Shown piece after piece: positions 1 to 23,875 of a DNA stretch of 64,000 bases (position 1 is its first letter; each line of letters begins with the position of its first letter). This DNA is from an uncultured Bdellovibrio sp. (lineage in GTDB: Bacteria > Bdellovibrionota > Bdellovibrionia > Bdellovibrionales > Bdellovibrionaceae). The notes beneath the pieces are model-generated. The model did not search any database and was not told the DNA's origin. It saw only the letters and a list, made by a program, of their open reading frames with translations. The stretch is taken from assembly GCA_964498705.1 (NCBI GenBank), contig CAZCHT010000003.1, positions 960 to 64,959 of the forward strand, written 5' to 3'. The translations under genes and the position numbers were made by a program.

Positions 1-2
1 GA

Positions 3-194: not shown

Positions 195-201
195 GGGACG
201 C

Positions 202-1386: not shown

Positions 1387-1387
1387 A

Positions 1388-3976: not shown

Positions 3977-4173
3977 ATACAAGCGGACAAGTTATTCCGG
4001 AGGGGCGCCGCTCACTGGGCCTAATTTTTTAATCAGACGCATGTACGTGTTGTCTCTCGATAGAACGATTCTTAATAGAACCCGTGAATAAGCTCCCCAA
4101 GATAAGGTTCTATTTTTTGTTAAGTCTCAAGCTGAGGCTTAAGATTTCCATAGTGGAAACCGACCATACATGT

Positions 4174-5611: not shown

Positions 5612-5808
5612 TAATTTCGAATAACTTTTTGCATGCTAATTAAATCATTAATTCCAATCCTGTAGGCATTATATCAAATTTAATTCTTGTGATTTAAATT
5701 GTAGGTCACAATAGTCGTGGATCGTGTAAACAGAATCAATGTTGCTCGCAATCCCGTAAGAAAAATTCTGAATCTGATTTTTACTATTTTTACGGCTAGG
5801 GATGTTAC

Positions 5809-7068
5809 TTATTTTGATAGTATGACCAAAGGATGATGTCTTAACTCATTAGCCTGCATTTTTGATAGTTCTGGATATTCAAGAACTCGTGATGGAATTG
5901 GATCCATGATATTTGAGCTACCTTCATTCGAGTTAGTGTCGGTATAAAGATCATGAATTGTAGAGTTAATCTCATAAGTATGAGACAAGCCAAGATAGTG
6001 AAGAATTTCATGGGTTAATACTATTGCCAATTCATGCGGTGGTTGGGTAAAAGTTTCTCCAATTCCTAATATGACACCAAAGTTTTTAAAATTACTTTCT
6101 GTCAATGGTCCTGGTATTCCTGGTGAAAATCCGTAAACTCTACCATAACTTTCTAAATAGGTTTCTTTTGCTAAAAAAACATTTAATACAGGTCGTTTAG
6201 TTTGGTGGTTCTTACCAAAAAGGCTAAGAATTTGTCTATCAGAATCGACAATTAAATTGTCTGCAATTTCGGCGGTTTCATCAATTACAACTTTTACATT
6301 GGCCGGCTCTAAAATTCGATTCACGCGGGTAATTACTTCGTGAAATTCTGAATGCTTTTCATTCCATTCTCTGGCTCCGGAAAACAAGATCCGTAGTGGT
6401 AAAATAGCTGGAGCCCTTTTTGGCATTTGGGGCTTATAAGTTACTCGAATACTAACAGAGTGGTCCTTGAATTTGTCTTCGATGAGAGCTGCTATCTTGA
6501 ACGTATATCTTCCAGGTTTAATTTTGAATCCGCCACTGATCTCAGAAGTTAAAGCAAGCGAAGCAAAACCATTAAAAAACCCTGGTATCGAACGAACTGG
6601 TGATAAAAATGCAGCCATGGCATCAGGTGAATTGCCTAATAACTTTTGCAAACTCTGTTGATATTCTTTTGAGGGTGTAGATATCTTTTGCATATTTTCC
6701 ATAACTAATTCGTAACCGTCAGGATCACTAAGTGATTTAATTAAATAAATCTGTTTATCGGAACCCAGGATATTAATGTGAACACTGCCAGTACCCTTTG
6801 GAACATCTAAAGATATGGTCTCTGATGTGGAGCTTGTCATATCTATAACAAATTTTTCTTGAATGAGATTCCCTACTTGTTCTTTCGCGTAGCGATTCGA
6901 ATAGAATTTCATGCAACTAGAGTTTGTCATAGTAGCTGCTGAAGCTTTGGTATTAAATGAAAAGAAAGATAATATCATTAAAGCTATAATTGGAAACAAA
7001 GAATTACCGATCGGTAAAACAAATATTAAGATAAAGAAATAGCTTCTTTTCTCTTTAAACAAGGTCAC
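5809..7068 (-). CDS. Secreted metzincin-type zinc metalloprotease
   Basis: The HEILHYLGLSH motif matches the HExxHxxGxxH zinc-binding motif. An N-terminal hydrophobic segment is present, and a downstream NIMDP is a possible Met-turn. Confidence 0.7.
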   Translation of the reverse strand: MTLFKEKRSYFFILIFVLPIGNSLFPIIALMILSFFSFNTKASAATMTNSSCMKFYSNRYAKEQVGNLIQEKFVIDMTSSTSETISLDVPKGTGSVHINILGSDKQIYLIKSLSDPDGYELVMENMQKISTPSKEYQQSLQKLLGNSPDAMAAFLSPVRSIPGFFNGFASLALTSEISGGFKIKPGRYTFKIAALIEDKFKDHSVSIRVTYKPQMPKRAPAILPLRILFSGAREWNEKHSEFHEVITRVNRILEPANVKVVIDETAEIADNLIVDSDRQILSLFGKNHQTKRPVLNVFLAKETYLESYGRVYGFSPGIPGPLTESNFKNFGVILGIGETFTQPPHELAIVLTHEILHYLGLSHTYEINSTIHDLYTDTNSNEGSSNIMDPIPSRVLEYPELSKMQANELRHHPLVILSK

Positions 7069-7458
7069 TCCTAAGTCAAAGCTATAGATTCAATTTTATA
7101 GAATGAAATTCCATTGTCCGATAAATAAAATTGTGAGCCGATTATATCATTAGATTATGACACTTAGAAATTCTTTCCTAGCCTGCGATGCCAAGCCCAG
7201 TAAAGTTTGTAAGGGTGTCAACGTCTTAGACACTGGCCGTGGGCCAGATAGGTCACATCCCTTTCGGGCGATCGTGAAAGGGAAAGCTTGCAGCCTTGGG
7301 GGTCTTAAGACAATAAGCCTATTTTTGCTTGCTAGTGAATTAAATTAATACACCTGAGCTCAAATAGAATCTCATTTAAATTCTAAATTAAGCCATCTTT
7401 AAACTGATCGATTGGCAGAGTCTTGCATATTGAATTATCTTTATTAAAGGAGCCACTT

Positions 7459-7869
7459 ATGACTAAAACTCTTATTGCGACTATTAGTATATTTTTGGCG
7501 ATGACTTGTTTTGCAGCGGCAGGAGAAATTTCCGTTCTTCATCGCGGAGTAAATCCCAACGCCATCACAGTCAATGTTGATTATAGTATTTCACTTGGAA
7601 AAGAAACTAGTTACAGCAATAGAAATTATATAATGGACCTAGCAGATATGAATTCAAAAGTATTAGAAGCAAAAAGACAGGGACAGGTTGTCGATATTTT
7701 GATAGATAAGTCAGCCCAACGCTTCACTCTTGATGTAATTACAATGCAAGTAAGAGCCGCAACAAAAGAAGAACGAGAAAATTTGGTAACTACCACCCAA
7801 GATCAAAATTTAGCATTACAAGCTGAAATTATACAATTACGTGAAAAACTAAGAAGCCTTGGTCAATAA
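7459..7869 (+). CDS. Small secreted protein with C-terminal coiled coil, unknown function
   Basis: ATG 7459 is preceded by AAAGGAG and gives the signal peptide MTKTLIATISIFLAMTCFAAAGE. The C-terminus is heptad-like ([19 protein letters not shown]). Its last ~130 bp are duplicated at 20110-20242. Confidence 0.6.
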   Translation: MTKTLIATISIFLAMTCFAAAGEISVLHRGVNPNAITVNVDYSISLGKETSYSNRNYIMDLADMNSKVLEAKRQGQVVDILIDKSAQRFTLDVITMQVRAATKEERENLVTTTQDQNLALQAEIIQLREKLRSLGQ

Positions 7870-7915
7870 GACGATAGTTCTGCTATGAGAGCCTCAAGAG
7901 CCAGCGTTCTCTGTT
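7737..7915. repeat. Left copy of the 179-bp direct repeat (3' end of the 7459-7869 ORF plus a duplicated 50-bp 3' end of hisS)
   Basis: Aligns without gaps to 20110-20288 at a constant offset of 12373 bp. There are six mismatches (7742, 7767, 7789, 7793, 7809, 7815). Positions 7816-7915 are identical. Confidence 0.9.
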
Positions 7916-8006
7916 TCTTCAAATAAAAATTTATTTTTCAATTTGTTCATAGATCAAGGGTACATGAATAATTTAAAAAACCCGTTGATCGGTAACATAT
8001 TTAAAT

Positions 8007-8798
8007 TCAATCAAATAACTGAGGGTTCGCAGATTCTATTATTTCTTTAAAAGTTGAAAATAGTCTACTAGCCGGACCACCCCCCATTATTCTTCGATCA
8101 AAAGAAAGTAACAAGGGAATGCTTAAGGCGGCCTCAACGTTATTTTCAATAACTAGAGCTCTTTTTTCAACTTTCCCAAAAGAAAAGGTTAACGGCCAAG
8201 GCCATGTGGTCATAACAAGATCAGCTCCAGCTTTAGAAGGAGAGTTAACCCAAGCGGCGCATCCTCTATATTTTATCCAATAATAAGGACTCCAATAAGG
8301 CATATTAATCAAAATATTACTGAAGGGCCTTGGGATGTATTTTAAAACTCTCATGAATGTTTTAAATTTTGGATCATTGGCTTCATTACAATTCACAAGT
8401 GTTTGCAGTTCATTGGTTATTAAAGCTATTTTTTTTATTAGTGGCGAAGTAATGACGGCGGCATAGGCTTGTCCAGGAAGCGCCGGTAAAGATTTTTCTA
8501 CGGCTACACAAATGTCTATATTCTCAAACTGGTAGAGTCTTTTAAAGAAGGGTGGACCTAATATCGCTCGGTTAGCTTCAGGATGAAGTTTCATCGTCAT
8601 GGCCGCTGCTTTTATGACTAAGGCCGTATAGGATGGAGTTGCTTTACCTTGAGCTCGTAATAAATATCGCTGGTGATTCAAATTCTCTGCACAAGCAAGT
8701 GCGGTCATTGTAACCATATGTCCAGGTACTAAGATATCATTCATAGCCCAGGATGTTTTTTCTGCAGATGAAATGTTAATTTTGCTGAAGCTAGCCAT
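8007..8798 (-). CDS. Stand-alone 2-oxoacid dehydrogenase E2 catalytic-domain-like (CAT-fold) protein with the catalytic His replaced by Arg
   Basis: The 263-aa ORF aligns to the E2 catalytic domain only (PSYTALVIKAAAMTMKLHPEANR ... SFDRRIMGGGPASRLF versus canonical S.DHR.IDG...A.FL). It has no lipoyl or subunit-binding domains. Confidence 0.75.
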   Translation of the reverse strand: MASFSKINISSAEKTSWAMNDILVPGHMVTMTALACAENLNHQRYLLRAQGKATPSYTALVIKAAAMTMKLHPEANRAILGPPFFKRLYQFENIDICVAVEKSLPALPGQAYAAVITSPLIKKIALITNELQTLVNCNEANDPKFKTFMRVLKYIPRPFSNILINMPYWSPYYWIKYRGCAAWVNSPSKAGADLVMTTWPWPLTFSFGKVEKRALVIENNVEAALSIPLLLSFDRRIMGGGPASRLFSTFKEIIESANPQLFD

Positions 8799-8918
8799 TT
8801 AAACCTCTTTATTTGATTTATTAATGGTAACAGCGTGGGCTATTAGCTTGTGCGGTTTTGTGACTTTTTATAATTTTTTTGTTGTTGTGGGGGTAAGTTT
8901 ATAATTGAATACAAAATC

Positions 8919-9677
8919 ATGAATAATAATTGTCAATTGAGTATTAATACAAAAAGTTACGAATCTAAAGTTCAAAACATTAGTCCTGAAATGATGTTTA
9001 TGTCCAGGCAACAAAGTTATAAGAAAAATCAAAAACAAATAGAAGCCTATGGTGAACATTGGATGATAGCTTTTGCCGACTTAAAACCAGGCGAAATTGG
9101 CATAAGACATGGCCAACTGTCTATTCCTTTAAGTGGACCTTGTGGAATTCTAATAGGAACTAACTCTATTGTTGAATTTGAATTTCAAAAAACGGATATA
9201 AACTGGTATGCAATTAGCTCACTCAGTTTAAATCTACCACAATGCTTTCATGAGAAAGTTATCTTTTTTGAATGGGATAAACAAATACCTAAAAATTTTG
9301 AAACTATTTTTGACTCTATTAAATTAATGCCTAATAAAAAAGAGATAGAAATGCAACGCTACTCATCGGCTGTGGCGCTCAAAACAAAGCATTTCATAGA
9401 TAATAATTTTTCAGAAATATTGCTAATCACAGATTTAGCAAAAAAATTAAATTACTCTAGAAGTGTTATGACCAGGGAATTTACAAAAGCTTATGGAATT
9501 TCTCCGTTTGAATACCGTCAAAAAGTTCGAGTTTACAGAGCTGTTAGAGTGTTGGCAGCGGGAGCTAATGTTACTACAGCCCTTGTTGAATCAGGATTCT
9601 CATCCCAAACTCAATTTTTCCACCAATTTAAGAAACATATAGGTACTCAACCGTTTAATTATAAATATTCAAAATAA
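8919..9677 (+). CDS. AraC family transcriptional regulator (paralog A)
   Basis: The C-terminal double HTH is ITDLAKKLNYSRSVMTREFTKAYGISPFEYRQKVRVYRAV...GFSSQTQFFHQFKKHIG. It is divergent from the E2-like gene at 8007-8798. Confidence 0.85.
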   Translation: MNNNCQLSINTKSYESKVQNISPEMMFMSRQQSYKKNQKQIEAYGEHWMIAFADLKPGEIGIRHGQLSIPLSGPCGILIGTNSIVEFEFQKTDINWYAISSLSLNLPQCFHEKVIFFEWDKQIPKNFETIFDSIKLMPNKKEIEMQRYSSAVALKTKHFIDNNFSEILLITDLAKKLNYSRSVMTREFTKAYGISPFEYRQKVRVYRAVRVLAAGANVTTALVESGFSSQTQFFHQFKKHIGTQPFNYKYSK

Positions 9678-9690
9678 TACTCAAAAAAAA

Positions 9691-9713
9691 GCCCTTGTTT
9701 TTAGCAAGGGCTT
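9691..9713. terminator. Stem-loop terminator between the convergent AraC genes
   Basis: AGCCCTTG-tttttag-CAAGGGCT is flanked by A8 on the left, which reads as a T8 tail for minus-strand transcripts. Confidence 0.5.
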
Positions 9714-9789
9714 CGTGAAGTAATTTTTTTAAAACTATTTCATTAGATTAATAAGATTCAGTTTGCCTTCACTCATAAGTTTATTTTGT

Positions 9790-9806
9790 TATTTCGTCCT
9801 ATCCTC
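9790..9806 (+). repeat. 17-nt motif TATTTCGTCCTATCCTC, copy 1 (putative IS91-family element end)
   Basis: Identical 17-mers occur at 9790-9806, 11805-11821 and 17139-17155, all in the same orientation. Copies 2 and 3 sit just 3' of IS91-like transposase remnants. Confidence 0.6.
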
Positions 9807-9946
9807 AAAGAAGAAAAGTGTCATCTTGTTGGCAGCTTAATTTCAAATAATGAATTCAGCATTAAGATACTAAATACATTATTTTCAAGCTTAGGACTGA
9901 GTATTTTTTTAGTCGTCCTACTATTGAAAGGTTTATTTAAACAAGA

Positions 9947-10753
9947 TTAAATTATTCGACCCATCTGCCTATTAATTTTATATTGGTTAGGTACAGCATT
10001 TAAAATATTTTTAAAATGTACGATGAATTGGCTTGGATCAGAAAAACCAACTGCGTAAAGAGCTTCGGTAATAGTATGACCATATCTAACTTTAACTAAT
10101 GCTTCATGAATTCTAATTTTGTGTCGATATTCGACGGGTGAAATTCCATAGACTTTTGTAAAAGCCCTGGTCATCACTACTCTTGAATAATTTAATTCTT
10201 TAGCTATTGCAGAAATTTTCATCTCTTCGCGAAAGTGTAAATCAATATAGGCCTTTAATTTTTCGGCTACTGCAGACGGATAGCGCTCTTGAACAATCAC
10301 AGTCGCTTCTTTTAAACGCCCTAAAAGGTCATAAACATCTTGTTTAGTTTTTGGAATTGAAAATTCTGAGTTTGTTATAAATGTTGGGCTAGTGATATTG
10401 AATGGAATTTTAGAAATAGAGCCAATACAAGACCAGCTTAAAGGACCATCTTCTACGTGCATTTCCAATAAACTAAATGGAGGTTGAAATATTAAAGTAG
10501 GGCCATAAAGATCAACTAGTTGATTTCCACATCGCAACTTAACTCGGTCTTTTGGTAGGTTAGACAATGCAATAAACCAATCAGAAGCATAGGATTCATG
10601 ATAAATATTTTTTTTATATTGATGTGATTTTTCTGAATATAAGAGTTCATCATCAATAAGATGAACAGTAGCTTTATAATTTGATGTTGTAATAGTGGCC
10701 TCATTTTTTATTAAGAGGTCATCGTTAGGCCTTTGATCTAGTAAGCTATTCAT
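9947..10753 (-). CDS. AraC family transcriptional regulator (paralog B)
   Basis: HTH region IAKELNYSRVVMTRAFTKVYGISPVEYRHKIRIHEAL...GFSDPSQFIVHFK. The first ATG is at 10753 (MNSLLDQ), while the ORF track start 10792 is a TTG. It is divergent from the E2-like gene at 10826-11605. Confidence 0.85.
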   Translation of the reverse strand: MNSLLDQRPNDDLLIKNEATITTSNYKATVHLIDDELLYSEKSHQYKKNIYHESYASDWFIALSNLPKDRVKLRCGNQLVDLYGPTLIFQPPFSLLEMHVEDGPLSWSCIGSISKIPFNITSPTFITNSEFSIPKTKQDVYDLLGRLKEATVIVQERYPSAVAEKLKAYIDLHFREEMKISAIAKELNYSRVVMTRAFTKVYGISPVEYRHKIRIHEALVKVRYGHTITEALYAVGFSDPSQFIVHFKNILNAVPNQYKINRQMGRII

Positions 10754-10825
10754 ACATGAATAGTAGATAAGATATAAGTTACAAATCAACAAGTTTTATA
10801 AAAAATTAAGTTTCATGATTAATTT

Positions 10826-11605
10826 ATGGATAAACAAAATTATGAAATCGTTAACTCCGATAGTTTTTTTAAGGTAAATGCTTCAATTGTTGAGAATGAA
10901 ATTGATCTGAGCTCAACAGTAACCATGGTAAATCTTATAGATCTAACAAAGATTGAAGAAATACGAAGCTCATCAGTGGGCATAAAACCCAGTTACACAG
11001 TTTTTGTTGCAAAAGCTTTGGCAAAAAGCTTAGTCGATTTTCCAGAGATGAATAAAAGATTTTATAAGCCTTTTGGTTTTTTTCCTAGGGTGTTTCAAGA
11101 ATTTAAAAATGTGGATATGGCTATAGCATCTGAAGTAACGGACCCAAAGTTAGCACATGTTGCGTATATTGGTATAATGAAAGATGTGCAACATAAGACG
11201 CTGCAAGAAATTCAACAATGGCTATTAGAGTTTAGAAAAACTGAAGCAGTAGCACAATGGAAAATCTTTAGTGGAATTATTCTTAAGCTGCCAGTATTTT
11301 TATCAAAAATTATCATCAGATTGCCAGTCTATTTTCCAAGCCTGTGGGTAAAATACAGGGGAGGGGTGGCAATGATCAGCTCTCCAGCAAAGTATGGTGT
11401 TGACGGGCTTATTGCAGCCTGGAGCGCGCCAATTGGTGTCTCATTTGGTTATGTAAAAGAACGTGTCATTTCAAAAAATGGACAAATAGTTGCGGTACCC
11501 TCATTCAATTTAACTGTGAACTTTGACCGAAGAGTTTTTTCTGGCGCTCAAGGGGCCAGATTCATTGCAAGAATAAGCGAAATTTTAGAAAAAGCAGAGT
11601 ATTAA
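10826..11605 (+). CDS. Stand-alone E2 catalytic-domain-like (CAT-fold) protein with the catalytic His replaced by Arg (paralog 2)
   Basis: KPSYTVFVAKALAKSLVDFPEMNKR ... NFDRRVFSGAQGARFIARISEILE aligns with the E2 C-terminal ...FDHRVIDGADGARFI.... It is 259 aa and has no lipoyl domain. Confidence 0.8.
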   Translation: MDKQNYEIVNSDSFFKVNASIVENEIDLSSTVTMVNLIDLTKIEEIRSSSVGIKPSYTVFVAKALAKSLVDFPEMNKRFYKPFGFFPRVFQEFKNVDMAIASEVTDPKLAHVAYIGIMKDVQHKTLQEIQQWLLEFRKTEAVAQWKIFSGIILKLPVFLSKIIIRLPVYFPSLWVKYRGGVAMISSPAKYGVDGLIAAWSAPIGVSFGYVKERVISKNGQIVAVPSFNLTVNFDRRVFSGAQGARFIARISEILEKAEY

Positions 11606-11642
11606 TGTTTAAGCTGGCTGAGAAAAACGAATAACAAATTTT

Positions 11643-11821
11643 GTGTTTTTTGATTCTGAGTCTAAGAAAAAAGCACACTTCAACATCGATGTTGAAACCT
11701 GCATCAAATGCGGCGGTAAAATGAAAATTATTGCGGCCATCGAGGATCCAGAAGTGATTCGAAAAATCTTGGAGCACATGGGGCTATCACCAAAGCATGA
11801 ACAATATTTCGTCCTATCCTC
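11643..11821 (+). mobile_element. Remnant of an IS91-family (Y2 rolling-circle) transposase C-terminus plus element-end motif
   Basis: The translation ...NIDVETCIKCGGKMKIIAAIEDPEVIRKILEHMGLSPKHEQYF matches, from memory, the conserved C-terminal C..CGG.(M/L)KIIAAI...VI.KIL.HLGL block of IS91/ISCR transposases. No upstream catalytic part is present. It ends in the 17-nt motif. Confidence 0.6.
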
Positions 11822-11880
11822 GACTAGGCTTGACTTCTATGTCTGCGCTATTGCCAATAGTGATCTCCGCTTAGTAATTT

Positions 11881-12747
11881 TTAGAAAAAAAATCTTCTAT
11901 AAACCCAATCTTGAAGTATGATTCGACATTGATCTGGAAGTATTTTTTTTAAAAACCAGTTAATATGCGATTCGGTTCCAACTCTGATTCGAACTGGGAT
12001 ATTTTTTTTATTACATAATTTAATAATAGTATCAACAACAGCAGCAGGATCTTTTTCTATCTTTTTTTGAATAAATTCTAAAAATTTAGAAAACCTAATC
12101 ATCCGTTTTTCATATTGATAAAATTCATGATGAGATTCTTTAGAAACTTTAGAATTTTGTGAAAAACCGGTTTTGTAACCACCAGGTTCAATGGCACAAA
12201 CTTGAATTTTGAATATTGATAAATCATAATACAAAGCTTCAGTAAGACTATCAATAGCATGTTTTGAAGCACTATAAATTCCATAGAAAGGAAAAACATT
12301 GAATCCAACTAAACTACTAAGATTTATGATTCGACCTTGTTTTTTTCTTAGAAGTGGCAAAAGTTTTTGAATAATAAACAGGGGCGCAAAAAAATTAGTC
12401 TCGAATTGCATTCTAATTTGTTTTTCTTCTTGAAGTTCCACTGGCCCCAAAAGTCCAAAGCCTGCATTATTAATTAAAATATCAAGACCATCAGGAAAAT
12501 AATTAAAAGCCTCAATTAAGCAAGATTCTAAACTTTCTCTATTGTCTAAATGGCCATCTAATAAAATAAGTTGTTTATTGGCTATTTGAGTTGAAAATTC
12601 AGAAAAAATGTTTTTTCCACGAATCATGCCACCTCTTATTACAGCGACAACAAAATAATTCTGTTCGAGTAATTTTTTAGTAACCTGAAAGCCAAAACCA
12701 CTGGAAACACCTGTTATAAAAACACTTTTTTTTGTAATTTGATACAT
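11881..12747 (-). CDS. Short-chain dehydrogenase/reductase (SDR) family oxidoreductase
   Basis: Motifs VFITGVSSGFGF (TGxxxGxG), NNAG and YSASKHAI (YxxxK). ATG 12747 is preceded by GAAAGG. Confidence 0.85.
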   Translation of the reverse strand: MYQITKKSVFITGVSSGFGFQVTKKLLEQNYFVVAVIRGGMIRGKNIFSEFSTQIANKQLILLDGHLDNRESLESCLIEAFNYFPDGLDILINNAGFGLLGPVELQEEKQIRMQFETNFFAPLFIIQKLLPLLRKKQGRIINLSSLVGFNVFPFYGIYSASKHAIDSLTEALYYDLSIFKIQVCAIEPGGYKTGFSQNSKVSKESHHEFYQYEKRMIRFSKFLEFIQKKIEKDPAAVVDTIIKLCNKKNIPVRIRVGTESHINWFLKKILPDQCRIILQDWVYRRFFF

Positions 12748-12785
12748 AGAAAAACCTTTCAAGGGTATACTGTTCAAAATATTTG

Positions 12786-13415
12786 CTATTTAATTTTTAC
12801 AGCGGGAACTCCAGCCCAGACCTCACCAGTTTTAATAATAGAATTTTTTGTGACTAAAGACATGGCGCCTACGATAGCATTATCTTCAATGACAACACCT
12901 GACAATACGACACTATTGGCTCCTATTGTAACGTTTTTCCCAATAGTAATTTTTTTATGGCCAAATTTACGTCCCTCTTGGTAATGCGGTACTAGAAGTG
13001 CTCTATTTCCAACAAAACTACCTTCTCTAATAACAATTAAATGAGGATCAAATAATAATCCTGCTGAAAAACTTTGTAGACTCATTTTTCCACCGAAAAG
13101 ACGATTAGTAAATGGACTTAAATATACAGGAATAATATTGATGTTTTTTAGCGGATGAAAATAAGTTAACCAAAAACACAGATTAATCATCCAAATTGTT
13201 TCCGCTCTGCTTCCTTCTTTAAGATCTCCTTCAGGTATTGGAATTAAAAAAAGGATAATTCTGTATACCAAAACATTGATTAATAAAAATATACTAATCA
13301 AATAAAAAACATTTGTTTCAAAACATTTCTGTTCTGTTAACAATTTGGTTAATACAAAGACAATTAATTGTAGCAATATAAAAATAAAAAGTGGTAATGG
13401 TCTTAGCTTTCTCAT
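12786..13415 (-). CDS. Membrane-anchored hexapeptide-repeat (left-handed beta-helix) acyltransferase
   Basis: It has N-terminal hydrophobic helices. The C-terminal LbH repeats are ITIGKNVTIGANSVVLSGVVIEDNAIVGAMSLV...GEVWAGVPAVKIK, typical of WcaF/Maa-like O-acetyltransferases. Confidence 0.75.
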   Translation of the reverse strand: MRKLRPLPLFIFILLQLIVFVLTKLLTEQKCFETNVFYLISIFLLINVLVYRIILFLIPIPEGDLKEGSRAETIWMINLCFWLTYFHPLKNINIIPVYLSPFTNRLFGGKMSLQSFSAGLLFDPHLIVIREGSFVGNRALLVPHYQEGRKFGHKKITIGKNVTIGANSVVLSGVVIEDNAIVGAMSLVTKNSIIKTGEVWAGVPAVKIK

Positions 13416-13511
13416 ACAGAAAATATAAGATGATCACTTTTTTATTATTGGCGTTTTGTGACTTCTTTATCCAAAGCACCTAAAAACTGGACTATAAACG
13501 TACTTGAGTGT

Positions 13512-14279
13512 TTAAATTCTATTTTTATTAAATGGTGAGTATTTTTTTGGTGTCAGTTTAAAATGTTTTTTAAACTGATAAATAAATTGTTTGGGGTCAC
13601 TATAGCCAATATTTTCAGATATTTCAGTAATAGGAAATCCTAAGTTCATAAGAGCTAGGGCTTCAAAAATTCTTAACTTATGGCGATATTCTATAGGCGT
13701 CAGGTTGTAGGATTTTTTAAAAGATCTGCTTAATACTTCCCTTGAAGTTTTCAACTCATTTGCTATTTGATAAATTTTTTCGTTTTTTAAGTGGTAGGTG
13801 TTTTCAATAATTGCTTTTAGCTTTTCAGCTATTGCAGAAACGACTATCTGTTGTTTTAATTCTTCACCATTTTTAAACTCAGAGATAAGATTCATTACTT
13901 GGTTTCTGTTTTTAGGTAATGAACATGTTTTTTCCTGATCTATTATCATTGGATTTTTATAAGAATTATCAAGAGGCCAACAAGAAGTTATGGTTGTAAA
14001 ATCAATTTTAATCCCACTTGGTACTACCGTTTCTAATAAAGAAAAAGGAGGACAGAAAATGATTTTATCTGATTCAATAGCAAGATACTTATTCTCAGAT
14101 CTTATAAGTAAGCCTAAACCTTCTGCATTATTAATAAATAAAATACACCAGCTAGATCCAAAACAATCTATGGATACTTTATTTTTTCTTATTTGACTAT
14201 TATAGTTTATGAAAAAATGATCATCTATAATTTTATTACGTTGTGTATAGCTTGCTGTTTGAATTAGATAATCTTTCAT
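13512..14279 (-). CDS. AraC family transcriptional regulator (paralog C)
   Basis: HTH region IANELKTSREVLSRSFKKSYNLTPIEYRHKLRIFEAL...GYSDPKQFIYQFKKHF. The N-terminal region is similar to paralogs A and B (SAIAEKLKAIIE). Confidence 0.85.
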   Translation of the reverse strand: MKDYLIQTASYTQRNKIIDDHFFINYNSQIRKNKVSIDCFGSSWCILFINNAEGLGLLIRSENKYLAIESDKIIFCPPFSLLETVVPSGIKIDFTTITSCWPLDNSYKNPMIIDQEKTCSLPKNRNQVMNLISEFKNGEELKQQIVVSAIAEKLKAIIENTYHLKNEKIYQIANELKTSREVLSRSFKKSYNLTPIEYRHKLRIFEALALMNLGFPITEISENIGYSDPKQFIYQFKKHFKLTPKKYSPFNKNRI

Positions 14280-14573
14280 TTCAAAATTTCAGATTTTGGT
14301 ATTACGTAAAATATATCTAAGAAAGGCACCATATCCTTTTAGTATATTTTTTTCGTTTAGAAGTCCATGTTTTTTATAAGCTTAACTGATCACTCACTCG
14401 ATAAAATATATTGTGAAAATCAATCCCAATTTGCTGGATAACACTTTGGCACACAGACGGCCCAAGTTATCTAGAATAATTTTTTTCAAATGTAGGTTTT
14501 ATGAAAATGACAAATTTGGCCGAATCTTACGGATACCCTAAGTCAAATGATAGAATTATGAGTACTGAGATAG

Positions 14574-15365
14574 CTAATCATTTGGTTTCATAACTTGCTT
14601 TTTATGAGCAATTATATGTTTTGGATTTACTCCTAGCCAGCTTTTAAACTGTCTAAAAAAATTACTGTACTCTTCAAAGCCAGATTCGTAACAGGCGTCA
14701 ATAAGTGGTTTATCTTTCATGCTGAGTTCTTTAACAGCCGCATTTAACTTAAGCCGGTTCAGATATTCATTGGGGTTTACTCTATAGCATTTTTTAAATA
14801 GATGAGTAAGGCTGCTATAATTCATTTCAAGTTCCTCACAAAAATCTTTAATTTTTCTTCCAGTTAAATAGTTTTCATCAATATGATGTTTTAACTTTAA
14901 TGCTAGTTTTGAATTGTTAAATTCTGTTGGCAGTATAGCTAAATATGTTTTTTGATTTTCAATATGTTTTAATAGTTCTATGTCTGATTGAAAATAAGAT
15001 TCAGCACTCCAAGGTATAACAAAGCCATTATTTCTTAATTTAGTCGGTAGCTCTATCTCGCCACGGAAAGCTGTCCATCGGATAATGCCAGGAGATAGTT
15101 TCCAATGAATTATATGTTTTGACGGTAAAAAGATCGCAATAGGGCTTTGAAATAACTTTTCATCCTCAGGAAATTGTATACGGATTAAATTGTCATTGGT
15201 CTCTGAAATAAATAAAAACCAGGAGCTTGGAAAAACATCAAAGCTGGACCTTTCTTGTGGGATACATTCAACTCTCTCAAGATACTGAAACTGGGGATTT
15301 ACCTGTAAGACATGAGTTGTATAATTCTTAAAGTTTACTGAATAGCTATCCATTGTATCCCACAT
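14574..15365 (-). CDS. AraC family transcriptional regulator (paralog D, most divergent)
   Basis: HTH region FCEELEMNYSSLTHLFKKCYRVNPNEYLNRLKLNAAV...GFEEYSNFFRQFKSWLG. It is divergent from the GMC oxidoreductase gene. Confidence 0.8.
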   Translation of the reverse strand: MWDTMDSYSVNFKNYTTHVLQVNPQFQYLERVECIPQERSSFDVFPSSWFLFISETNDNLIRIQFPEDEKLFQSPIAIFLPSKHIIHWKLSPGIIRWTAFRGEIELPTKLRNNGFVIPWSAESYFQSDIELLKHIENQKTYLAILPTEFNNSKLALKLKHHIDENYLTGRKIKDFCEELEMNYSSLTHLFKKCYRVNPNEYLNRLKLNAAVKELSMKDKPLIDACYESGFEEYSNFFRQFKSWLGVNPKHIIAHKKQVMKPND

Positions 15366-15435
15366 GTTTTATTTATAATCATAAAACTTCAATTTTTGCA
15401 TAGTTGCATCCCTAAAACCCACTTAGCATTAAATC

Positions 15436-17034
15436 ATGGATCAAGAGATAAGTCAGGTTGAAAATAAAATTTGGGATAACGTGATTATTGGTACTGGAAT
15501 GGGGGCGGCAGCGCTGGGATATGCTTTGGCTAAAGCAGGGCAAAGCGTTTTGTTTTGTGAAAAAGGACTACTTCGAGATGGAAATAAATCTAATTTAATT
15601 GGTTTTGCTGAGAAAAATCTTTCTAATTCTTTGGATATTGAGTCACGAAAAGAAATTTTTAATAAAATGGGTAGGTTTTGTGACCCCCTTTTTGAAGCTA
15701 AGGGCGTTGGAAAGAAGTCAAAGATTCAGAAACTATTTCCAATGTTAGGTGTTGGCGTCGGTGGATCTTCGGCTATTTATGGGATGGTCCTTGAAAGATT
15801 TTTTCCATATGATTTTGAAAATAATGATTGGCCAATAAAATTTTCAGATTTAGAGCCATTTTATCGTCAAGCTGAAAGTTTATTTGAAGTTCATGGAGAA
15901 CCAGATCCTCTTAAATTTGAGCAAAACTTTTCTTATATAAATCGCAACTATCAAGAAGTTCATCCAGTAAATGATGTGCTTATAAAATACTTGAAAAAAA
16001 ATAGATATCATCCGTATCGGCTTCCACTTGCGAACAAAAAAATTAATGGTTGTAATACTTGCCAAGGTTTTCTGTGTAATAAGAATTGCAAAAATGATGC
16101 TTGGAATATTTTAATACAGCCAGCTTTGAAATTACCTTTTTCAAAGCTTTTAGTCGAAGCAGAGGTGATATCACTTGAAGCTAATTCAGAACAAGTTCAT
16201 CTGGCTAATATGAAAATGAACAATAAAAATTTTAAGATCAAAGGAAAACGATTTATTCTAGGTGCGGGGGCAATAAATACTCCAAAAATTTTATTACAAT
16301 CAAAATCTTTGTATCATCCTGATGGGATTGGAAATCATTATTCTGTTGTTGGAAAATTTTTGATGAGACATCTGGTGGATCTATATGCTCTGAATTTGAA
16401 AAAGTCTTATGGACAAACAGGAAGTGTGAAAGAGTTTGGAATTAATGATTTTTATGCTTTTGAAAACTTTAAGTTTGGAAATATTCAGTCTTTTGGAGCC
16501 TTACCTGAAGAGGATCTTATAGCTCGTGATTTGATTTTTAAGCTCACGCAAAATAAAAAAAGTTTAAGTTCGTTATCAGTGCAAACTTTTTTACCTATGG
16601 TAAAAAAAATCATCAAATACATAACTCAACCTTCAACTTTGTTAGCGGCAACGATGGAGGATGAGCCTCTGGCTGAAAATTCTATTTATTTTAATGAAGT
16701 AAATGAGCTGTATTTAAGATATCATATTAGTTCTAGGGACCAAGAAAAACTAAAACTTTTTAGAGGTCATATTTTAGAACTGTTTAAACCTTTTAGCCCT
16801 CGGATTATTAAAATGGCAGAGTCTAATGAAATGTTAGGGCATATTTGTGGAACATGTAGAATGGGCCGTGATCCAAGAAAAAGTGTTATAGATCAATACA
16901 ATAAGGTCCATGGATTGAAGAATCTTTATATTGTAGATTCATCTTTTCTACCAACAAGTGGAGGAACTAATCCTGCTTTAACTTTAGTTGCAAATAGTTT
17001 AAGAGTTGCAGATCATTTGACAAAAAATCAGTGA
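15436..17034 (+). CDS. GMC family FAD-dependent oxidoreductase
   Basis: The N-terminal FAD fold is DNVIIGTGMGAAALGYALAKAGQSVLFCEKG. It has a Cys-rich insert CNTCQGFLCNKNCKND. The C-terminal GMC motif is GTCRMGRDPRKSVIDQYNKVHGLKNLYIVDSSFLPTSGGTNP. Confidence 0.85.
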   Translation: MDQEISQVENKIWDNVIIGTGMGAAALGYALAKAGQSVLFCEKGLLRDGNKSNLIGFAEKNLSNSLDIESRKEIFNKMGRFCDPLFEAKGVGKKSKIQKLFPMLGVGVGGSSAIYGMVLERFFPYDFENNDWPIKFSDLEPFYRQAESLFEVHGEPDPLKFEQNFSYINRNYQEVHPVNDVLIKYLKKNRYHPYRLPLANKKINGCNTCQGFLCNKNCKNDAWNILIQPALKLPFSKLLVEAEVISLEANSEQVHLANMKMNNKNFKIKGKRFILGAGAINTPKILLQSKSLYHPDGIGNHYSVVGKFLMRHLVDLYALNLKKSYGQTGSVKEFGINDFYAFENFKFGNIQSFGALPEEDLIARDLIFKLTQNKKSLSSLSVQTFLPMVKKIIKYITQPSTLLAATMEDEPLAENSIYFNEVNELYLRYHISSRDQEKLKLFRGHILELFKPFSPRIIKMAESNEMLGHICGTCRMGRDPRKSVIDQYNKVHGLKNLYIVDSSFLPTSGGTNPALTLVANSLRVADHLTKNQ

Positions 17035-17040
17035 TTTTTC

Positions 17041-17155
17041 TGGCCCACCAAAGCATGAACAATACTTCCAGCAGCACTTCGAGATGAACATCCCTCAGTA
17101 AATCAAAACCTAGATGTTAGACTTGAACAATTCGGCCTTATTTCGTCCTATCCTC
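17041..17155 (+). mobile_element. Second IS91-family transposase 3' remnant plus element-end motif
   Basis: CACCAAAGCATGAACAATA(C/T)TTC is shared with 11789-11810. Here the reading frame continues PPKHEQYFQQHFEMNIPQ* and the 17-nt motif follows at 17139-17155. The 11.8-kb copy lacks the intervening ~88 bp. Confidence 0.55.
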
Positions 17156-17184
17156 TCGAGGTGGAGTTTGTACAATTAGTTCAA

Positions 17185-17330
17185 CTGCCTAATACGGTGT
17201 TGATATGCTGGTTGCTGCATGGAGTTGACCGATTAGGATCTCATTTAATCTTACTCTAAATTTTGACAGAAGAATAGTTTCTGGCGCTCAAGGAGCGAAA
17301 TTGATAGCCCGCATTTCAGAAATTCTATAG
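17185..17330 (+). pseudogene. Decayed 3' fragment of a third E2 catalytic-domain-like gene
   Basis: The translation VDMLVAAWS*PIRISFNLTLNFDRRIVSGAQGAKLIARISEIL* aligns to the C-terminus of the 10826-11605 product. It has an in-frame TGA at 17226-17228, an internal deletion of about 19 codons and no 5' part. Confidence 0.8.
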
Positions 17331-17427
17331 AATGGCGCATTCTAAGAATTAACTTCAAATTCTAGTTTACAATATAAATAAATCCATAAACACTGATCGC
17401 AATAAAGTACTTTGCTGAGGTGTTCAT

Positions 17428-19119
17428 ATGAAAGCTAAATTACGACAACGGGTTCTATATTTGATCTTTATGTTTTTACTAATTGGAATGAGTCAAAAGT
17501 TGATGGCAGCGGATAAAGAAGCTCTCAGAATTGGAATGATTCAGGAATCTGACACGCTAAATCCGTTACTATCCAGTAACTCAGCAGGACGATATATTCT
17601 AGGTTTCTTGCACAGGCCCTTTGTTTCTCTTGATAATGATAAAGAGTTTAAACCGTTAATTGTAAAAAAAATTCCAAATTTAAAAGATAAATCACTTAAG
17701 GTCTTTACTACAAATAAAGTAAAAAAAATAAAAGCAACTTGGGAATTTGTCGACGGTTTAAGGTGGAATGATAATGTTCCTGTTACTTGTAAGGATTTAC
17801 ATTTTTCATGGCAAGTGGGATTAAATCCAAATGTTACTTTGGCATCAAAAGAGTCTTTTGAGAAAATAGAAAAAATTGAATGGGAGGAAAAGACGCCTAC
17901 AAAATGTAACGTCACTTATAAGGAGGCACATTGGAATTTTTTTTTGAACATGCCCGATTTGTTACCGGCTCATCTTGAAGAAAGTATTTATAACAAATAC
18001 AGCAGCAGTAAAGAGGGGTACGAAAGAAATTCCAATTATCAAAGAGAACCTACTAAAAAAGGGCTTTGGTTTGGTCCCTATATAATTTCAGAAGTTAAGC
18101 TGGGTTCACATTTGATTTTAACTGCTAATGAAAACTTTTATGGAAAAAAGCCAAAAATTAAAAACATCATAATTAGATATATCACGAGTTCTGCCTCATT
18201 GGAGTCAAATTTAAGATCAGATACAATAAACCATATAGCTCGATTGGGATTATCTTTAGATCAGGCGTTAATTTTTGAAAAGAAAATTCAGGCCGAGAAA
18301 TTACCTTTCGAGGTCAAGTTTCAAGACGGAATGACTTATGCCCATATAAATATTAATTTAACTCACTCTATACTTAAAGACCAAGGTGTGCGCCAAGCTC
18401 TATCCTATGGCTTAAATAAACAAGAGATTGTAGACAGTTTATTTGAAGGTAAAGCTACAATCGCCTATCATTTGATTTCACCGCAGGATCCTTTGTACAC
18501 AATGGATCCTACCACCATTAATAAGTATGAATCGGACAAAAAAAAGGCTCGAAAGATTTTAGATGATATTGGCTGGAAAGTTGGGTCGGATAGTTTTCGT
18601 TATAAAGAAGGTCAGAAGTTGAGGTTCACTTTGGTTGCTGCTGGAGGCGCAAAAATAAACGAGACTATTCAGACACTGATACAATCCCAATGGAAAGAAA
18701 TTGGAGTTGATTTGAAAATTAAATCGGAAACAGGGCGTACGTTATTTTCTGAGACATTACCAAAACAAAAATTTGATATGGCTCTAGTTTCCTGGGCTAG
18801 TTTTCCCCAAGAATCAGTCAGTTCGGTTCTTAATTCTAAGAATATTCCTTCGGATAGTAATATGTGGGCAGGGCAAAACTATGCTGGTTACAAAAACGAA
18901 CGAGTTGACCAGTTGACAGATCATTACGGAAGTGAATTTGATTTTGAGAAGCGAAAAAAAAACATGCGCGAAGTTATGAGCCTATATACAAAAGAAGTTC
19001 CGGCTATCCCCCTATACTTTAGGAAGGAAAATTCAGTTGTACCTGTGGGTATGAAAAACTTTGAATTAACTGGACATTTATTTTTTGAAAGTTTGAAATC
19101 CGAAAATTGGGAGCTTTAA
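17428..19119 (+). CDS. ABC transporter substrate-binding protein, family 5 (peptide/nickel/opine type), orphan
   Basis: 563 aa with signal peptide MKAKLRQRVLYLIFMFLLIGMSQKLMAA. Length and overall pattern are typical of OppA/DppA-like SBPs. No permease or ATPase genes are adjacent. Confidence 0.7.
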   Translation: MKAKLRQRVLYLIFMFLLIGMSQKLMAADKEALRIGMIQESDTLNPLLSSNSAGRYILGFLHRPFVSLDNDKEFKPLIVKKIPNLKDKSLKVFTTNKVKKIKATWEFVDGLRWNDNVPVTCKDLHFSWQVGLNPNVTLASKESFEKIEKIEWEEKTPTKCNVTYKEAHWNFFLNMPDLLPAHLEESIYNKYSSSKEGYERNSNYQREPTKKGLWFGPYIISEVKLGSHLILTANENFYGKKPKIKNIIIRYITSSASLESNLRSDTINHIARLGLSLDQALIFEKKIQAEKLPFEVKFQDGMTYAHININLTHSILKDQGVRQALSYGLNKQEIVDSLFEGKATIAYHLISPQDPLYTMDPTTINKYESDKKKARKILDDIGWKVGSDSFRYKEGQKLRFTLVAAGGAKINETIQTLIQSQWKEIGVDLKIKSETGRTLFSETLPKQKFDMALVSWASFPQESVSSVLNSKNIPSDSNMWAGQNYAGYKNERVDQLTDHYGSEFDFEKRKKNMREVMSLYTKEVPAIPLYFRKENSVVPVGMKNFELTGHLFFESLKSENWEL

Positions 19120-19130
19120 TTTTAAAGATA

Positions 19131-19847
19131 TTATTTTTCTTTAATAAATGTCATTACCCCTTTAGCGTCATAATGTGGGCAGATGTCTTTGTCATTGAAC
19201 TCAAGAAACAATTCATTTTTAATTCTATAAATTTCGTAGTCACGATTTGCCTCTTTTTTAAAATAGCCGCCAAAATCATATTTCATGTAGGTTGAAACCG
19301 AAGCTTGAATACCAAAATTTTGTAAAAAGAAGGATTCTGCAAAAGTCTTAAAACTAAATTTTTGATATTCTGAAAATTCCCCGTTACACTTATTGATAGC
19401 TTTATAATTTACGTTAGAATCGACAAGGATACCTTTTAGTGAATAATGGTTGATACCATTACCTGTGGATGAATAATCAATTTGGACTTTATTTTTTGAC
19501 CAAATAAAAGGATTTTTATTGTCACGATCTGCATTCATAGTGGTTTGATTAAGCTTACAACTACTTTGAAGAACTGCTTTTTCGACATATCGTTCAGGCT
19601 TCAAACCATTATTAGAAATTGTATTTATTCTTAGTTCCACTTCCACATTAAAAATTCGAGGATCAATATCGACAATTGTTCCATAATAATAGGTAGGCTC
19701 ATCTTTAACAAAATAACGACACAGCATCTGTGTTTTTCTCCAGACGCCATCTAAACCATCCGTTGTAACTTGATTTACTTGAGAAAAAACAGAATTGGTT
19801 ATCAATAACAAACCTGTTAAGAGTAAGACAAGATTGATTTTTTTCAT
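19131..19847 (-). CDS. Secreted protein, unknown function
   Basis: 238 aa with signal peptide MKKINLVLLLTGLLLITNSVFSQ. No recognisable domain. Confidence 0.55.
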   Translation of the reverse strand: MKKINLVLLLTGLLLITNSVFSQVNQVTTDGLDGVWRKTQMLCRYFVKDEPTYYYGTIVDIDPRIFNVEVELRINTISNNGLKPERYVEKAVLQSSCKLNQTTMNADRDNKNPFIWSKNKVQIDYSSTGNGINHYSLKGILVDSNVNYKAINKCNGEFSEYQKFSFKTFAESFFLQNFGIQASVSTYMKYDFGGYFKKEANRDYEIYRIKNELFLEFNDKDICPHYDAKGVMTFIKEK

Positions 19848-20109
19848 AAATTGACCTCAACTTCTATATTCGAAATTAAGGCCATTGCCGAAACGAACCT
19901 ATTCTAGCTTAAGAACCAACAACTGACTGATAAAACTACACAAGTTCAAAATTTGTCTTAATAAATGCGAAATGGACGAATTGCTTTACTAGCTTTCCTA
20001 TCCGAGTAGACATTCTTTTGAAGAGGAATTATTCCTGCCAAAGCGGCATTGAAATTCAATGGGGGCTTAGGTGAATAAATAGGTCAGCCCATGCCTTCAC
20101 TCTGGACGC

Positions 20110-20288
20110 AATTATAATGCAAGTAAGAGCCGCAACAAATGAAGAACGAGAAAATTTGGTAGCTATCACCCAAGATCAAAAATTAGCGTTACAAGCTGAA
20201 ATTATACAATTACGTGAAAAACTAAGAAGCCTTGGTCAATAAGACGATAGTTCTGCTATGAGAGCCTCAAGAGCCAGCGTTCTCTGTT
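20110..20288. repeat. Right copy of the 179-bp direct repeat (pseudo-fragment of the 7459-7869 ORF 3' end plus the functional hisS 3' end)
   Basis: See the left copy. Weaker homology to 7670-7736 continues leftward to about 20041 (for example GTCAGCCCA..C.TTCACTCT). Confidence 0.9.
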
Positions 20289-21477
20289 CACCAGTACTCA
20301 TGATTTTGAAACCAAATTCTTTTTTCTCGACTTCTTGTGAGCCGATAATAATTGTGTAGTGGGCGTTTTTGTTAGAGGCTTTTTTCATTTTTTTGCCTAC
20401 GTTGCCACCATAGATAATTTCAATTTTGAATTTTGTCTCAGACCGCAGTCGACTAGCTAATCGCAATGATTCAATTTCTCCCACTTCGTCAGCTGGTACA
20501 AGTGCGATCAGTTTTAAATCTTCTGTCAAAAGAGATTTATCCGATAACTCTACTAAACGTTCAACGCCAGCCGCCCAGCCTACACCCGGAGTTTTAGGAC
20601 CGCCCATTGTTTCGATAAGTCCATCATAGCGACCACCCGCAAGCACGGTTCCTTGTGCACCCAGTTCTGTAGTCACAAACTCAAAAACTGTATGGGTATA
20701 GTAATCAAGCCCGCGCACTAGTTGAGATGATTTCTGGTAAGGAATTTCAAGAATATTAAGTCCGTTAATCAGTGAATCAAAATATTTTTTAGAAGCTTCA
20801 TTCAAAGAGCCTTCTAATTTAGGTGCGCCTTCGTTGATTTTCTTATCACCTTCATCTTTAGAATCTAAAATTCGCATTGGATTTTTTTCTAAACGAACCT
20901 TTGAATCCGCTGATAAATCGTTTTTGAATTTTTCATAATAAGTGACCAAAGTTTCGCGATAGGCAGCACGCGACTCTAAATCACCCAAGGTGTTGATCAA
21001 TAGGTTACATTTTTTTTCAATGCCGATCGATTTTAAAAGTTCATAGCCCAATTGCAAACATTCGATGTCCATCAAGTACGACTCAATTCCTAAAACTTCC
21101 ACTCCGATTTGGTGAAACTGGCGCAAGCGGCCTTTCTGTGGACGTTCGTAACGAAACATAGGACCGCAGTAGTATAGTTTCAAAGGAATTTTTTGAGCCA
21201 AGCCTTCTGAAATAAATGCACGCGCAATGCCGGCAGTGCCTTCGGGTCTTAGAGTCAGTGATTCATCTGATCGATCTTTAAATGTATAGGTTTCTTTGCT
21301 GACGACGTCCGACGTTTCGCCCAATGTGCGATGAAAAACTTCAGAATGTTCGAATATAGGTGTTCTGATTTCACCGAATCCATATCTTTGTGCTTTATCA
21401 TAAAAAGCACGCTCCATATTTCTAAAATAACTGCTTTCCTGTTCAAACCAATCTTGGGTGCCACGTACTCTTTGCAT
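20236..21477 (-). CDS. hisS: Histidine--tRNA ligase
   Basis: Class II aaRS/HisRS motifs [33 protein letters not shown] and AGGRYDGL, plus a C-terminal anticodon-binding domain. Confidence 0.95.
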
Positions 21478-21556
21478 AGGACTGAGTTTAGTAGATTTAT
21501 CCCGCTATTCAAAATGATTTTTACTCGACACAGTTGATAATAATGAGGTATTTACG

Positions 21557-22030
21557 GTGATTATGATTAAAAAATCGAACATTTGGTACATCGTCAGTGG
21601 CTGCATCTTTGCTTTTGTTCTAGGTAGCCTGTTAGTGTTTTTCATCAAAAAGAACCAGTTCACAGCCGAAGGAGCCGAAGTCGATTGGCGCGTACTGGGT
21701 GAAATGGACTATATCACGGGTAAAGCGCCAGATACTTTGAGCAAGTTCAGCGGTGCTCAGGTAAAAATTCCTGGATTCATGGTTCCTTTGGAGGACTCTC
21801 AAAAAGAAGTTTCCGAGTTTTTGCTAGTGCCGACTCCGCAGGCATGCATTCACGTTCCCGCACCGCCACCTAATCAGATGGTGTATGTAAAAATGAAGCC
21901 GGGTCGAAAAGCTGAAGTTCCCTATGGGCCAATTTGGGTGCATGGAAAACTAAACATGGTGACCAAAAAATCCATGTATGGCGATGCCAGTTTTGAACTC
22001 GAAGGCGAATTAGTCGAAAATTATAAATAG
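21557..22030 (+). CDS. DUF3299-like membrane-anchored protein
   Basis: It has an N-terminal TM helix. The motif VKIPGFMVPLE...EFLLVPTPQACIHVPAPPPNQMVYV resembles the DUF3299 signature as I recall it. Confidence 0.55.
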   Translation: MIMIKKSNIWYIVSGCIFAFVLGSLLVFFIKKNQFTAEGAEVDWRVLGEMDYITGKAPDTLSKFSGAQVKIPGFMVPLEDSQKEVSEFLLVPTPQACIHVPAPPPNQMVYVKMKPGRKAEVPYGPIWVHGKLNMVTKKSMYGDASFELEGELVENYK

Positions 22031-22051
22031 GGTAGTGAGCCGCTAGGCAAG

Positions 22052-23866: not shown

Positions 23867-23875
23867 AATAATCCT

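Follow-up and report, generated by a model that had tools for sequence, protein, structure and literature searches.

Decayed copies of an ISCR-group element and their cargo in an uncultured Bdellovibrio sp.: a probable record of natural gene capture

A 64,000-nt stretch of DNA from an uncultured Bdellovibrio sp. (assembly GCA_964498705.1, contig CAZCHT010000003.1; hereafter the window) carries a 12-kb island in which blocks of genes alternate with short relics of a transposable element (Table 1). The island is best read, with a probability of about 80%, as a decayed array in which three or more sibling copies stand head to tail, all of one ISCR-group element, a rolling-circle transposon of the IS91 family with an HUH transposase, seen so far in metagenome-assembled genomes (MAGs) of Bdellovibrionales. 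Each unit comprises cargo, a transposase remnant and the oriIS end of the element, and the following cargo begins at the very next base. This layout matches the prediction of one-ended rolling-circle transposition in IS91 and ISCR elements. For one cargo, block B, a native chromosomal counterpart has been found.

The array is marked by a 17-nt motif, TATTTCGTCCTATCCTC, that an earlier note on this DNA had placed at three plus-strand sites. All three copies (9790-9806, 11805-11821 and 17139-17155) proved exact, and no further match occurs in the 64 kb even at three mismatches. With 0.16 matches expected against three found, chance is excluded as their source. Comparison with related sequences shows that the motif lies at the very tip of the oriIS end in an IS91-family element of the ISCR group. 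Metagenome and MAG contigs supplied 12 independent ends in which the transposase stop codon is followed by a 3' untranslated region (UTR) of ~205 nt that runs to ...TTCGTCCTATCCTC and then diverges. Eleven of these ends (L004, L006-L008, L010-L015) are conserved up to ...AATTCGGSCTTWWTTCGTCCTATCCTC, with differing sequence beyond in each, which fixes their common stop at CCTATCCTC (the last bases of the element may also be written ...TCCTATCCTC). The twelfth, L009, has an identical terminus once an IS110-family insertion is read through. The intact elements, L010 directly and L009 past its insertion, thus terminate in ...CCTATCCTC as well. The bases beyond the end vary (AAT, TTT, CAG, AAA, CTT, CCA, TCA, GAT, GAC and TCG), and no tetranucleotide of the GTTC/CTTG type found beside oriIS follows it. 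When the extended end was scanned across 185,579 species-representative genomes, it was recovered in five contigs, all from Bdellovibrio or Bdellovibrionales MAGs. The earlier note had also raised a repeat of the repetitive extragenic palindromic (REP) type; the motif occurs three times in the 64 kb, always within the island, and elsewhere is contiguous with the 3' UTR of the element.

The likeness to an oriIS core, which the earlier note had proposed, is borne out by alignment with the oriIS-side ends of ISCR2 (...TTTATTCTTCCTATACGT; also ...GGGCGTTTATTCTTCCTATACGT) and of an ISCR1-type copy (...CTTCCTATACCC), both taken directly from plasmid records; CCTAT is invariant among them. Published ISCRs have the order terIS-rcr-oriIS, with oriIS downstream of the transposase gene, in a 232-bp region in the case of ISCR1 (PMC13393415, PMC6218425). 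That CCTC might lie beyond the element, as a target tetranucleotide of the IS91 kind, was suggested by TCCTAT/GTAT in L009 (the slash marks the boundary) and rejected because L009 reads ATCCTC past the IS110-family element and the junction of the first ori end with block B retains CCTC. A weaker fourth match that had been noted at 19993-20003 exists as sequence and has no profile support: local alignments gave z-scores of 0.4-3.8, and neither the 407-node profile nor the 55-nt terminal profile reported the site, even at very permissive E-values. The 8-mer at its core, TCCTATCC (19996-20003), has a count compatible with chance (five found, 1.1 expected). One of its other occurrences, on the plus strand at 3161-3168, lies outside the island in surroundings unlike the element and is likewise taken as chance. 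A scan for outward promoters at the ori ends gave no more than was found in shuffled sequences. A literature search with the ori core sequence matched only papers on FRT sites, and no paper pairing Bdellovibrio with IS91 or ISCR elements was found.

The second and third ends adjoin remnants of the transposase gene itself, and several searches establish what these are. The first had been delimited as 11643-11810; its 11679-11795 part is genuine, and the preceding SESKKKA stretch is cargo DNA. Over 39 amino acids this fragment is 89.7% identical to residues 434-472 of the intact relative in L009 (tblastn, E 1.5e-16), it matches positions 450-496 of 509 in NCBIfam ISCR_clade_Ia (E 5e-10), nhmmer detects it at E 4.6e-22, and it shares 67.6% identity with ISCR2 and 58.8% with an ISCR1-type protein (tblastn). 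These matches uphold the assignment to IS91/ISCR that the earlier note had made from the sequence alone. A tblastn search matched the same transposase block in over 5000 plasmid records. Pfam gave no transposase match to this fragment, because its Y2_Tnp model ends upstream of the C-terminal block. In remnant c2 as a whole, 109 nt of coding sequence are followed by a few PKHEQY codons and by the final 17 nt of the element. The second fragment (claimed at 17041-17100) is real by DNA profile (17041-17155; nhmmer E 3.3e-11, 55-nt terminal profile E 1.4e-16), although its closing IPQ and stop codon belong to the UTR and are not the true C-terminus, since the fragment joins UTR sequence through an internal deletion. 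It is made up of three segments from the 3' end of the element, namely codons ~481-503 (17042-17092), 15 nt of UTR (17092-17106) and the terminal 50 nt (17106-17155). Copy 2 lacks 76 nt (17063-17138) of copy 3, not the ~88 first estimated; TACTTC and TATTTC, the microhomology noticed earlier, mark the limits of this stretch.

All three ends in the window carry a private single-base variant, CTTATTTCG, found in no other end, and c2 and c3 both read PPKHEQYF where relatives read PPKVQHHFEDDF. Because they hold these features in common, the window copies descend from one local lineage. They have shrunk to 17-147 nt. Outside the island, an intergenic stretch on the minus strand (34084-34123) matches the N-terminal codons of the ISCR transposase over 36-40 nt (YQRHEPEKTTLY, including a stop codon). 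The match, at a blastn E of 0.007 to two intact elements, may be another remnant.

Intact copies of the parent element are present in L009 (2085-4022, its tip interrupted by the IS110-family element) and L010 (1607-3535). Both are ~1.93 kb long and encode a 510-aa protein with Zn_Tnp_IS91 and Y2_Tnp domains and an invariant HFH motif. A protein search with the 65-aa window fragment retrieved only fragments of 63-107 aa, and one with the longer L004 fragment retrieved 1144 relatives. The L009 and L010 transposases score 468-471 bits on NCBIfam ISCR_clade_Ia and 99-103 bits on the IS91 model. The former lies below the curated cut-off of 925 bits for NF052416 ('ISCR element clade Ia') and the latter below the 125 bits of the IS91 equivalog NF033538. 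By these scores the element is related to the curated ISCR clade Ia yet outside it, and it belongs to the ISCR group, not to IS91 proper. The full-length proteins are 47% identical to ISCR2 and 44% to the ISCR1-type protein. The left end of the relatives, AATGAATAA..., shows no relationship to their right end, and the sequences on either side are not duplicated. Direct arrays of the form ISCR-cargo-ISCR also occur in L004 and L012.

Several relatives have themselves been invaded or trimmed. The IS110-family element of L009 (4023-5392; transposase 4280-5293, minus strand; inverted repeats ATGAACCCGCCC and GGGCGGGTTCAT) sits inside the ori end, reading ...TCCTAT/GT[IS110]TTCATT/ATCCTC. The ISCR transposase gene of L008 is truncated by an IS66 element, and a further contig has an IS21 element next to a remnant. 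The second ISCR copy of L004 (10340-10380) stops after ...AATTCGGGCTT, without the last ~15 nt of the end. A window sequence just before the right repeat copy, TTGAAATTCAATGGGGGCTTA (20049-20069), is vaguely like this truncated tip, probably by chance.

The evidence for capture comes from block B. A 1.05-Mb contig, L102, was found through a member of the same 90% protein cluster as acyltransferase 2; a window protein also shares a 90% cluster with a protein of 'Bdellovibrio sp. 28-41-41', which makes the host Bdellovibrio-like. In L102 a 708-aa gene, an AraC regulator, an acyltransferase and a histidine kinase stand in this order in an ordinary chromosomal context, the genes flanking the segment are intact, and the contig carries no ISCR. 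The regulator-acyltransferase pair is there a native two-gene module. Window positions 9807-9925 are 86.6% identical to L102 8613-8731, and 9922-11674 are 89.4% identical to 9097-10848. The base next to 17-mer copy 1 is already homologous (CCTC/AAAGAAG in the window, TTGT/AAAGATG in L102), and the homology ends at 11672, 3-5 nt short of remnant c2. Both native break points fall within genes, of which the window holds just fragments. Block B is thus shown to be a cut-out of a native locus, with ends that coincide with ISCR landmarks. The position of this cargo upstream of a transposase remnant, with both limits at such landmarks, is comparative evidence for the predicted mobilization of DNA on the terIS side. 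Relative to L102 the cargo has lost 365 nt through short deletions at AT-rich microhomologies, like those of the element. Its two captured genes are under strong purifying selection, with ratios of nonsynonymous to synonymous substitution rates (dN/dS) of 0.05 and 0.08.

The gene-capture mosaic proposed in the earlier note is thus supported, with capture demonstrated for block B; for blocks A, C and D we infer it, in the case of C explicitly from its likeness to B. The guanine-plus-cytosine (GC) content of the blocks (0.31-0.34) fits L102 (0.35) and not the core genome (0.41-0.42), which marks the island as foreign. The third acyltransferase, at the start of block D, has lost its 5' end: aligned with acyltransferase 2, it starts at residue ~179, precisely where ori copy 3 ends, and is 78% identical to L102 10676-10749. 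Four AraC-type regulators are found in the island, 24-35% identical to one another and mostly paired divergently with an enzyme gene, together with two intact 2-oxoacid_dh-type acyltransferases (30% identical) and the pseudogene. For annotation of this genome, the 12-kb segment should be treated as a foreign mosaic, and three small open reading frames (ORFs) as junk, all of them junction artefacts: 9786-9950 (ori end plus gene fragment), 11643-11921 (cargo, transposase remnant and ori end) and 20117-20242 (truncated copy of a 148-aa gene).

Table 1. Features of the island and its flanking repeats, in window coordinates.
Feature	Position	Strand	Basis or content
Left repeat copy	7702-7915	+	Last 168 nt of 148-aa gene plus 53-nt copy of hisS 3' end
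Block A cargo	7916-9789		Pfam; GC 0.34
2-oxoacid_dh-type acyltransferase, block A	8007-8798	-	Pfam
AraC-type regulator, block A	8919-9677	+	Pfam
oriIS-end remnant 1	9790-9806	+	Exact 17-mer; last 17-18 nt of element; third-best match of 55-nt terminal profile
Block B cargo	9807-11672		Homology to L102; junctions 9806/9807 and 11672
Fragment of 708-aa gene, block B	9807-9950
AraC regulator 2, block B	9947-10792	-
Acyltransferase 2, block B	10826-11605	+
Histidine-kinase gene, last ~21 codons, block B	11606-11672
Remnant c2	11675-11804	+	Residues ~434-472, then PKHEQY codons past internal deletion; tblastn, nhmmer, NCBIfam ISCR_clade_Ia
oriIS-end remnant 2	11805-11821	+	Last 17 nt, joined to c2 via TAYTTC microhomology
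Block C cargo	11822-17040		Pfam; GC 0.31
SDR, block C	11881-12777	-	Pfam
Hexapeptide-repeat transferase, block C	12786-13415	-	Pfam
Two AraC regulators, block C	13512-14279 and 14574-15365	-	Pfam
GMC oxidoreductase, block C	15436-17034	+	Pfam
Remnant c3	17041-17155	+	Transposase codons ~481-503, 15-nt UTR piece and terminal 50 nt including oriIS-end copy 3 (17139-17155)
Third acyltransferase pseudogene, start of block D	17156-17331	+	Two in-frame stops, 60-nt internal deletion
Rest of block D	17332-20074		NCBIfam
ABC-type substrate-binding protein, block D	17428-19119	+	NCBIfam
238-aa putative lipoprotein, block D	19131-19847	-
Non-coding DNA, block D	227 nt		Holds the unsupported fourth TCCTATCC (19996-20003)
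Right repeat copy	20075-20288	+	5'-truncated copy of 148-aa gene plus true hisS 3' end

The rolling-circle steps we infer as follows. Replication would begin at oriIS, go back through the transposase gene, pass terIS without stopping and enter the upstream host DNA. The displaced strand would then circularize, joining the oriIS end to an arbitrary host position, and the circle would insert at or next to a resident copy, either by transposase or by homologous recombination with that copy. Repeated rounds would pile up different cargos in a single orientation. On this account the junction of the first ori end with block B would be a circle junction, the transferred DNA ending directly after CCTATCCTC, and the transposase genes and terIS of the window copies would have been lost by internal deletions of the microhomology type. 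IS91 is known for one-ended transposition without target-site duplication and for functional single-strand circles (PMC13181058), and in the ISCR1 model aberrant rolling-circle replication gives a product that then undergoes homologous recombination (PMC7707992).

The island is framed by a 214-nt direct repeat that the earlier note had overlooked. It sets the outer limits at 7915/7916 and 20074/20075; the left edge given previously (7916) stands, and the right edge is moved inward from 20109. The copies are 93% identical overall, with the right 107 nt identical and the left 107 nt at 87%. The 148-aa gene and hisS converge, and because the repeat is a duplication of their 3' ends, both remain intact. 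The pattern is consistent with homologous recombination of a circle, by which the island together with one repeat copy would have entered between the two genes. The closest relatives, L016 (a TARA scaffold) and L017, have histidyl-tRNA synthetases 89-90% identical to that of the window (~80% nucleotide identity). Synteny with them begins at ~20275-20285 and covers 20275-31442, to the right of hisS only; no counterpart of the sequence left of ~20285, including window 1-7700, was found within 10 kb of their hisS genes. The 148-aa gene is an orphan, with no homologue among 5.8 billion proteins, and every other contig that carries it is from the same strain with the same junction. In the region 5801-7915, a metalloprotease-like gene (5809-7068, minus strand) and the 148-aa gene (7423-7869) have a GC of 0.36, a value between those of the core (0.42) and of the island (0.31-0.34). 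Foreign DNA may reach left past the repeat.

A number of points weigh against the array reading. ISCR transposition has never been demonstrated experimentally (PMC6218425). Activity of the element in this genome is unproven, because the 64-kb window has neither an intact transposase gene (residues ~434-472 and ~481-503 alone remain) nor a detectable terIS. The ori end of IS91 reported to be sufficient is 82 bp, far above 17 nt (PMC13181058), and window copies 1 and 2 are probably dead. No conserved subterminal hairpin was recovered at the ori end with RNAalifold over eight ends (-4.8 kcal/mol, no useful covariation), and single-strand DNA folds gave z-scores of +0.5 to +1.4. The native counterpart found is that of block B, and at a synonymous divergence (dS) of 0.35-0.84 from this block L102 is not the direct donor but a relative of it. 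The 214-nt repeat is not a product of rolling-circle insertion itself, 69 nt intervene between block D and its right copy, and no empty site was found in relatives at the closest hisS loci. By eye, the ori end has only a weak AT-rich AATTC...AATT repeat. A candidate terIS remnant at the left edge of the island (7916-8010) was rejected, only the 8-mer ATGAATAA matching there with z at most 2.1.

A variant of the array reading, which does not exclude it and is a serious contender at somewhat less than even odds, holds that the array was built in a lower-GC Bdellovibrio-like lineage and imported whole as a circle, by recombination at the 214-nt segment, the ISCR never having been active here. All four blocks have the donor-like GC of 0.31-0.34, close to the 0.35 of L102 and away from the core at 0.41; the window is without a transposase; and the identical left junction is fixed in six other metagenome contigs (99.8-100% identity). 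Recombination with a diverged homologue would account for the left half of the repeat, at 87% identity, although the identical right half then requires a conversion tract as an additional assumption. Such import agrees with the published model for ISCR1 (PMC7707992). The main source of the repeat, the 148-aa gene, however, has no homologue in the 5.8 billion proteins and so no known donor, and the right repeat copy is not abutted by any ori end.

An unlikely extension of the array reading is that the 17-nt outer ori tip is a minimal site still in use, at which a transposase supplied in trans nicks after ...CCTATCCTC and inserts its products, so that a resident end serves as a directional landing pad stacking regulator-plus-enzyme modules. 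Two copies trimmed to an equal 17-18 nt, cargo starting right after each end and the recurrence of arrays in other Bdellovibrionales contigs would fit with it. If true, such an array would be a transposon-based functional analogue of the integron.

Still less probable is that the AraC/acyltransferase cluster is native and was merely interrupted by three ISCR insertions that later decayed, with no capture at all. The paralogous families of the blocks (four AraC regulators, three acyltransferases) and the third acyltransferase, cut at an ori boundary as if by insertion, would suit such a history. Block B contradicts it, with fragments of two unrelated flanking genes and limits at the boundary of the first ori end and at c2; no part of the island holds the 5' half that the third acyltransferase lacks, the paralogues at 24-35% identity are not local duplicates, and the GC is foreign. 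That the 17-mer is instead a recombinase attachment or integron-like cassette site, a REP-type repeat, a regulatory operator or a product of chance has next to no likelihood: it is short, identical and in one orientation between gene blocks, and one AraC ORF has a sub-threshold Phage_integrase match (E 0.0034), but Pfam found no integrase above threshold in the island, chance is excluded, the three copies in 64 kb all lie in the island, the genome-collection scan placed the extended motif in five Bdellovibrionales contigs only, and its contiguity with an ISCR 3' UTR in 12 independent ends refutes the idea.

Among the closest known systems is ISCR2. The copies that we take to be ISCR2 (NZ_CP047466 and NZ_CP061630, beside floR and tet(B)) are recorded as 'IS91 family transposase'. 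Both transposases are of the ~500-aa class (47% identical over their full length), with an N-terminal zinc-binding domain, the HFH motif and a C-terminal CxxCGG...IEDP block. In both systems oriIS lies ~200-230 nt past the stop codon, the ends being GTTGGACTTG...GGGCGTTTATTCTTCCTATACGT in ISCR2 and GTTAGACTTGAACAATTCGGCCTTATTTCGTCCTATCCTC here, and truncated copies often flank cargo. The relatives of the window element differ in falling under the clade Ia cut-off (468 against 925 bits) and in a longer C-terminal tail. They belong to Bdellovibrionales, whereas ISCR2 is found in Gammaproteobacteria, and the window cargo consists of regulators and enzymes of redox and acyl-transfer chemistry, not resistance genes. 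Helitrons of eukaryotes also recall the array in capturing host gene fragments by read-through of a terminator, and their decayed non-autonomous copies outnumber intact ones; their protein is unrelated beyond the HUH nuclease, and their hosts and termini are different.

Complex class 1 integrons with ISCR1, as explained by the Toleman model, share further traits. In them, too, variable cargo follows oriIS without a gap, copies of a host segment enclose the unit (3'-CS1/3'-CS2 there, the 214-nt repeat here), and multicopy ISCR-cargo-ISCR arrays are attributed to aberrant rolling circles and homologous recombination (PMC7707992, PMC6218425). In contrast, the window site is chromosomal, lies in an environmental lineage of predatory bacteria and involves no integron; its copies are reduced to 17-147 nt and its flanking repeats are only 93% identical; and a native 'before' locus is available for one cargo. 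IS91, IS801 and IS1294 likewise have HUH transposases, two distinct ends (oriIS and terIS) and no target duplication, and their one-ended transposition mobilizes DNA upstream of terIS through a single-strand circle intermediate (PMC13181058). The intact relatives of the window element nevertheless score 99-103 bits where the IS91 equivalog requires 125, no GTTC/CTTG-type tetranucleotide follows its end, and no clear subterminal palindromes were found there.

The case confirms an existing model and reveals no new kind of system. What is new is an ISCR-group lineage in a new host group, cargo other than resistance genes and an unusually clean before-and-after pair for one capture. ISCRs are blamed for building many multidrug-resistance regions, and the model of capture has been built on clinical structures, mostly with source loci that are not known. 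Here L102 as 'before' and block B as 'after' fix both break points within a few bases, and the left one sets the ori-cargo junction right after ...CCTATCCTC. The architecture of an array with a flanking repeat, familiar from complex class 1 integrons, is not peculiar to integrons. Intact elements, in L009 and L010, exist for testing. The island may accordingly be regarded as a natural record of gene capture by ISCR-type transposons outside antibiotic resistance.

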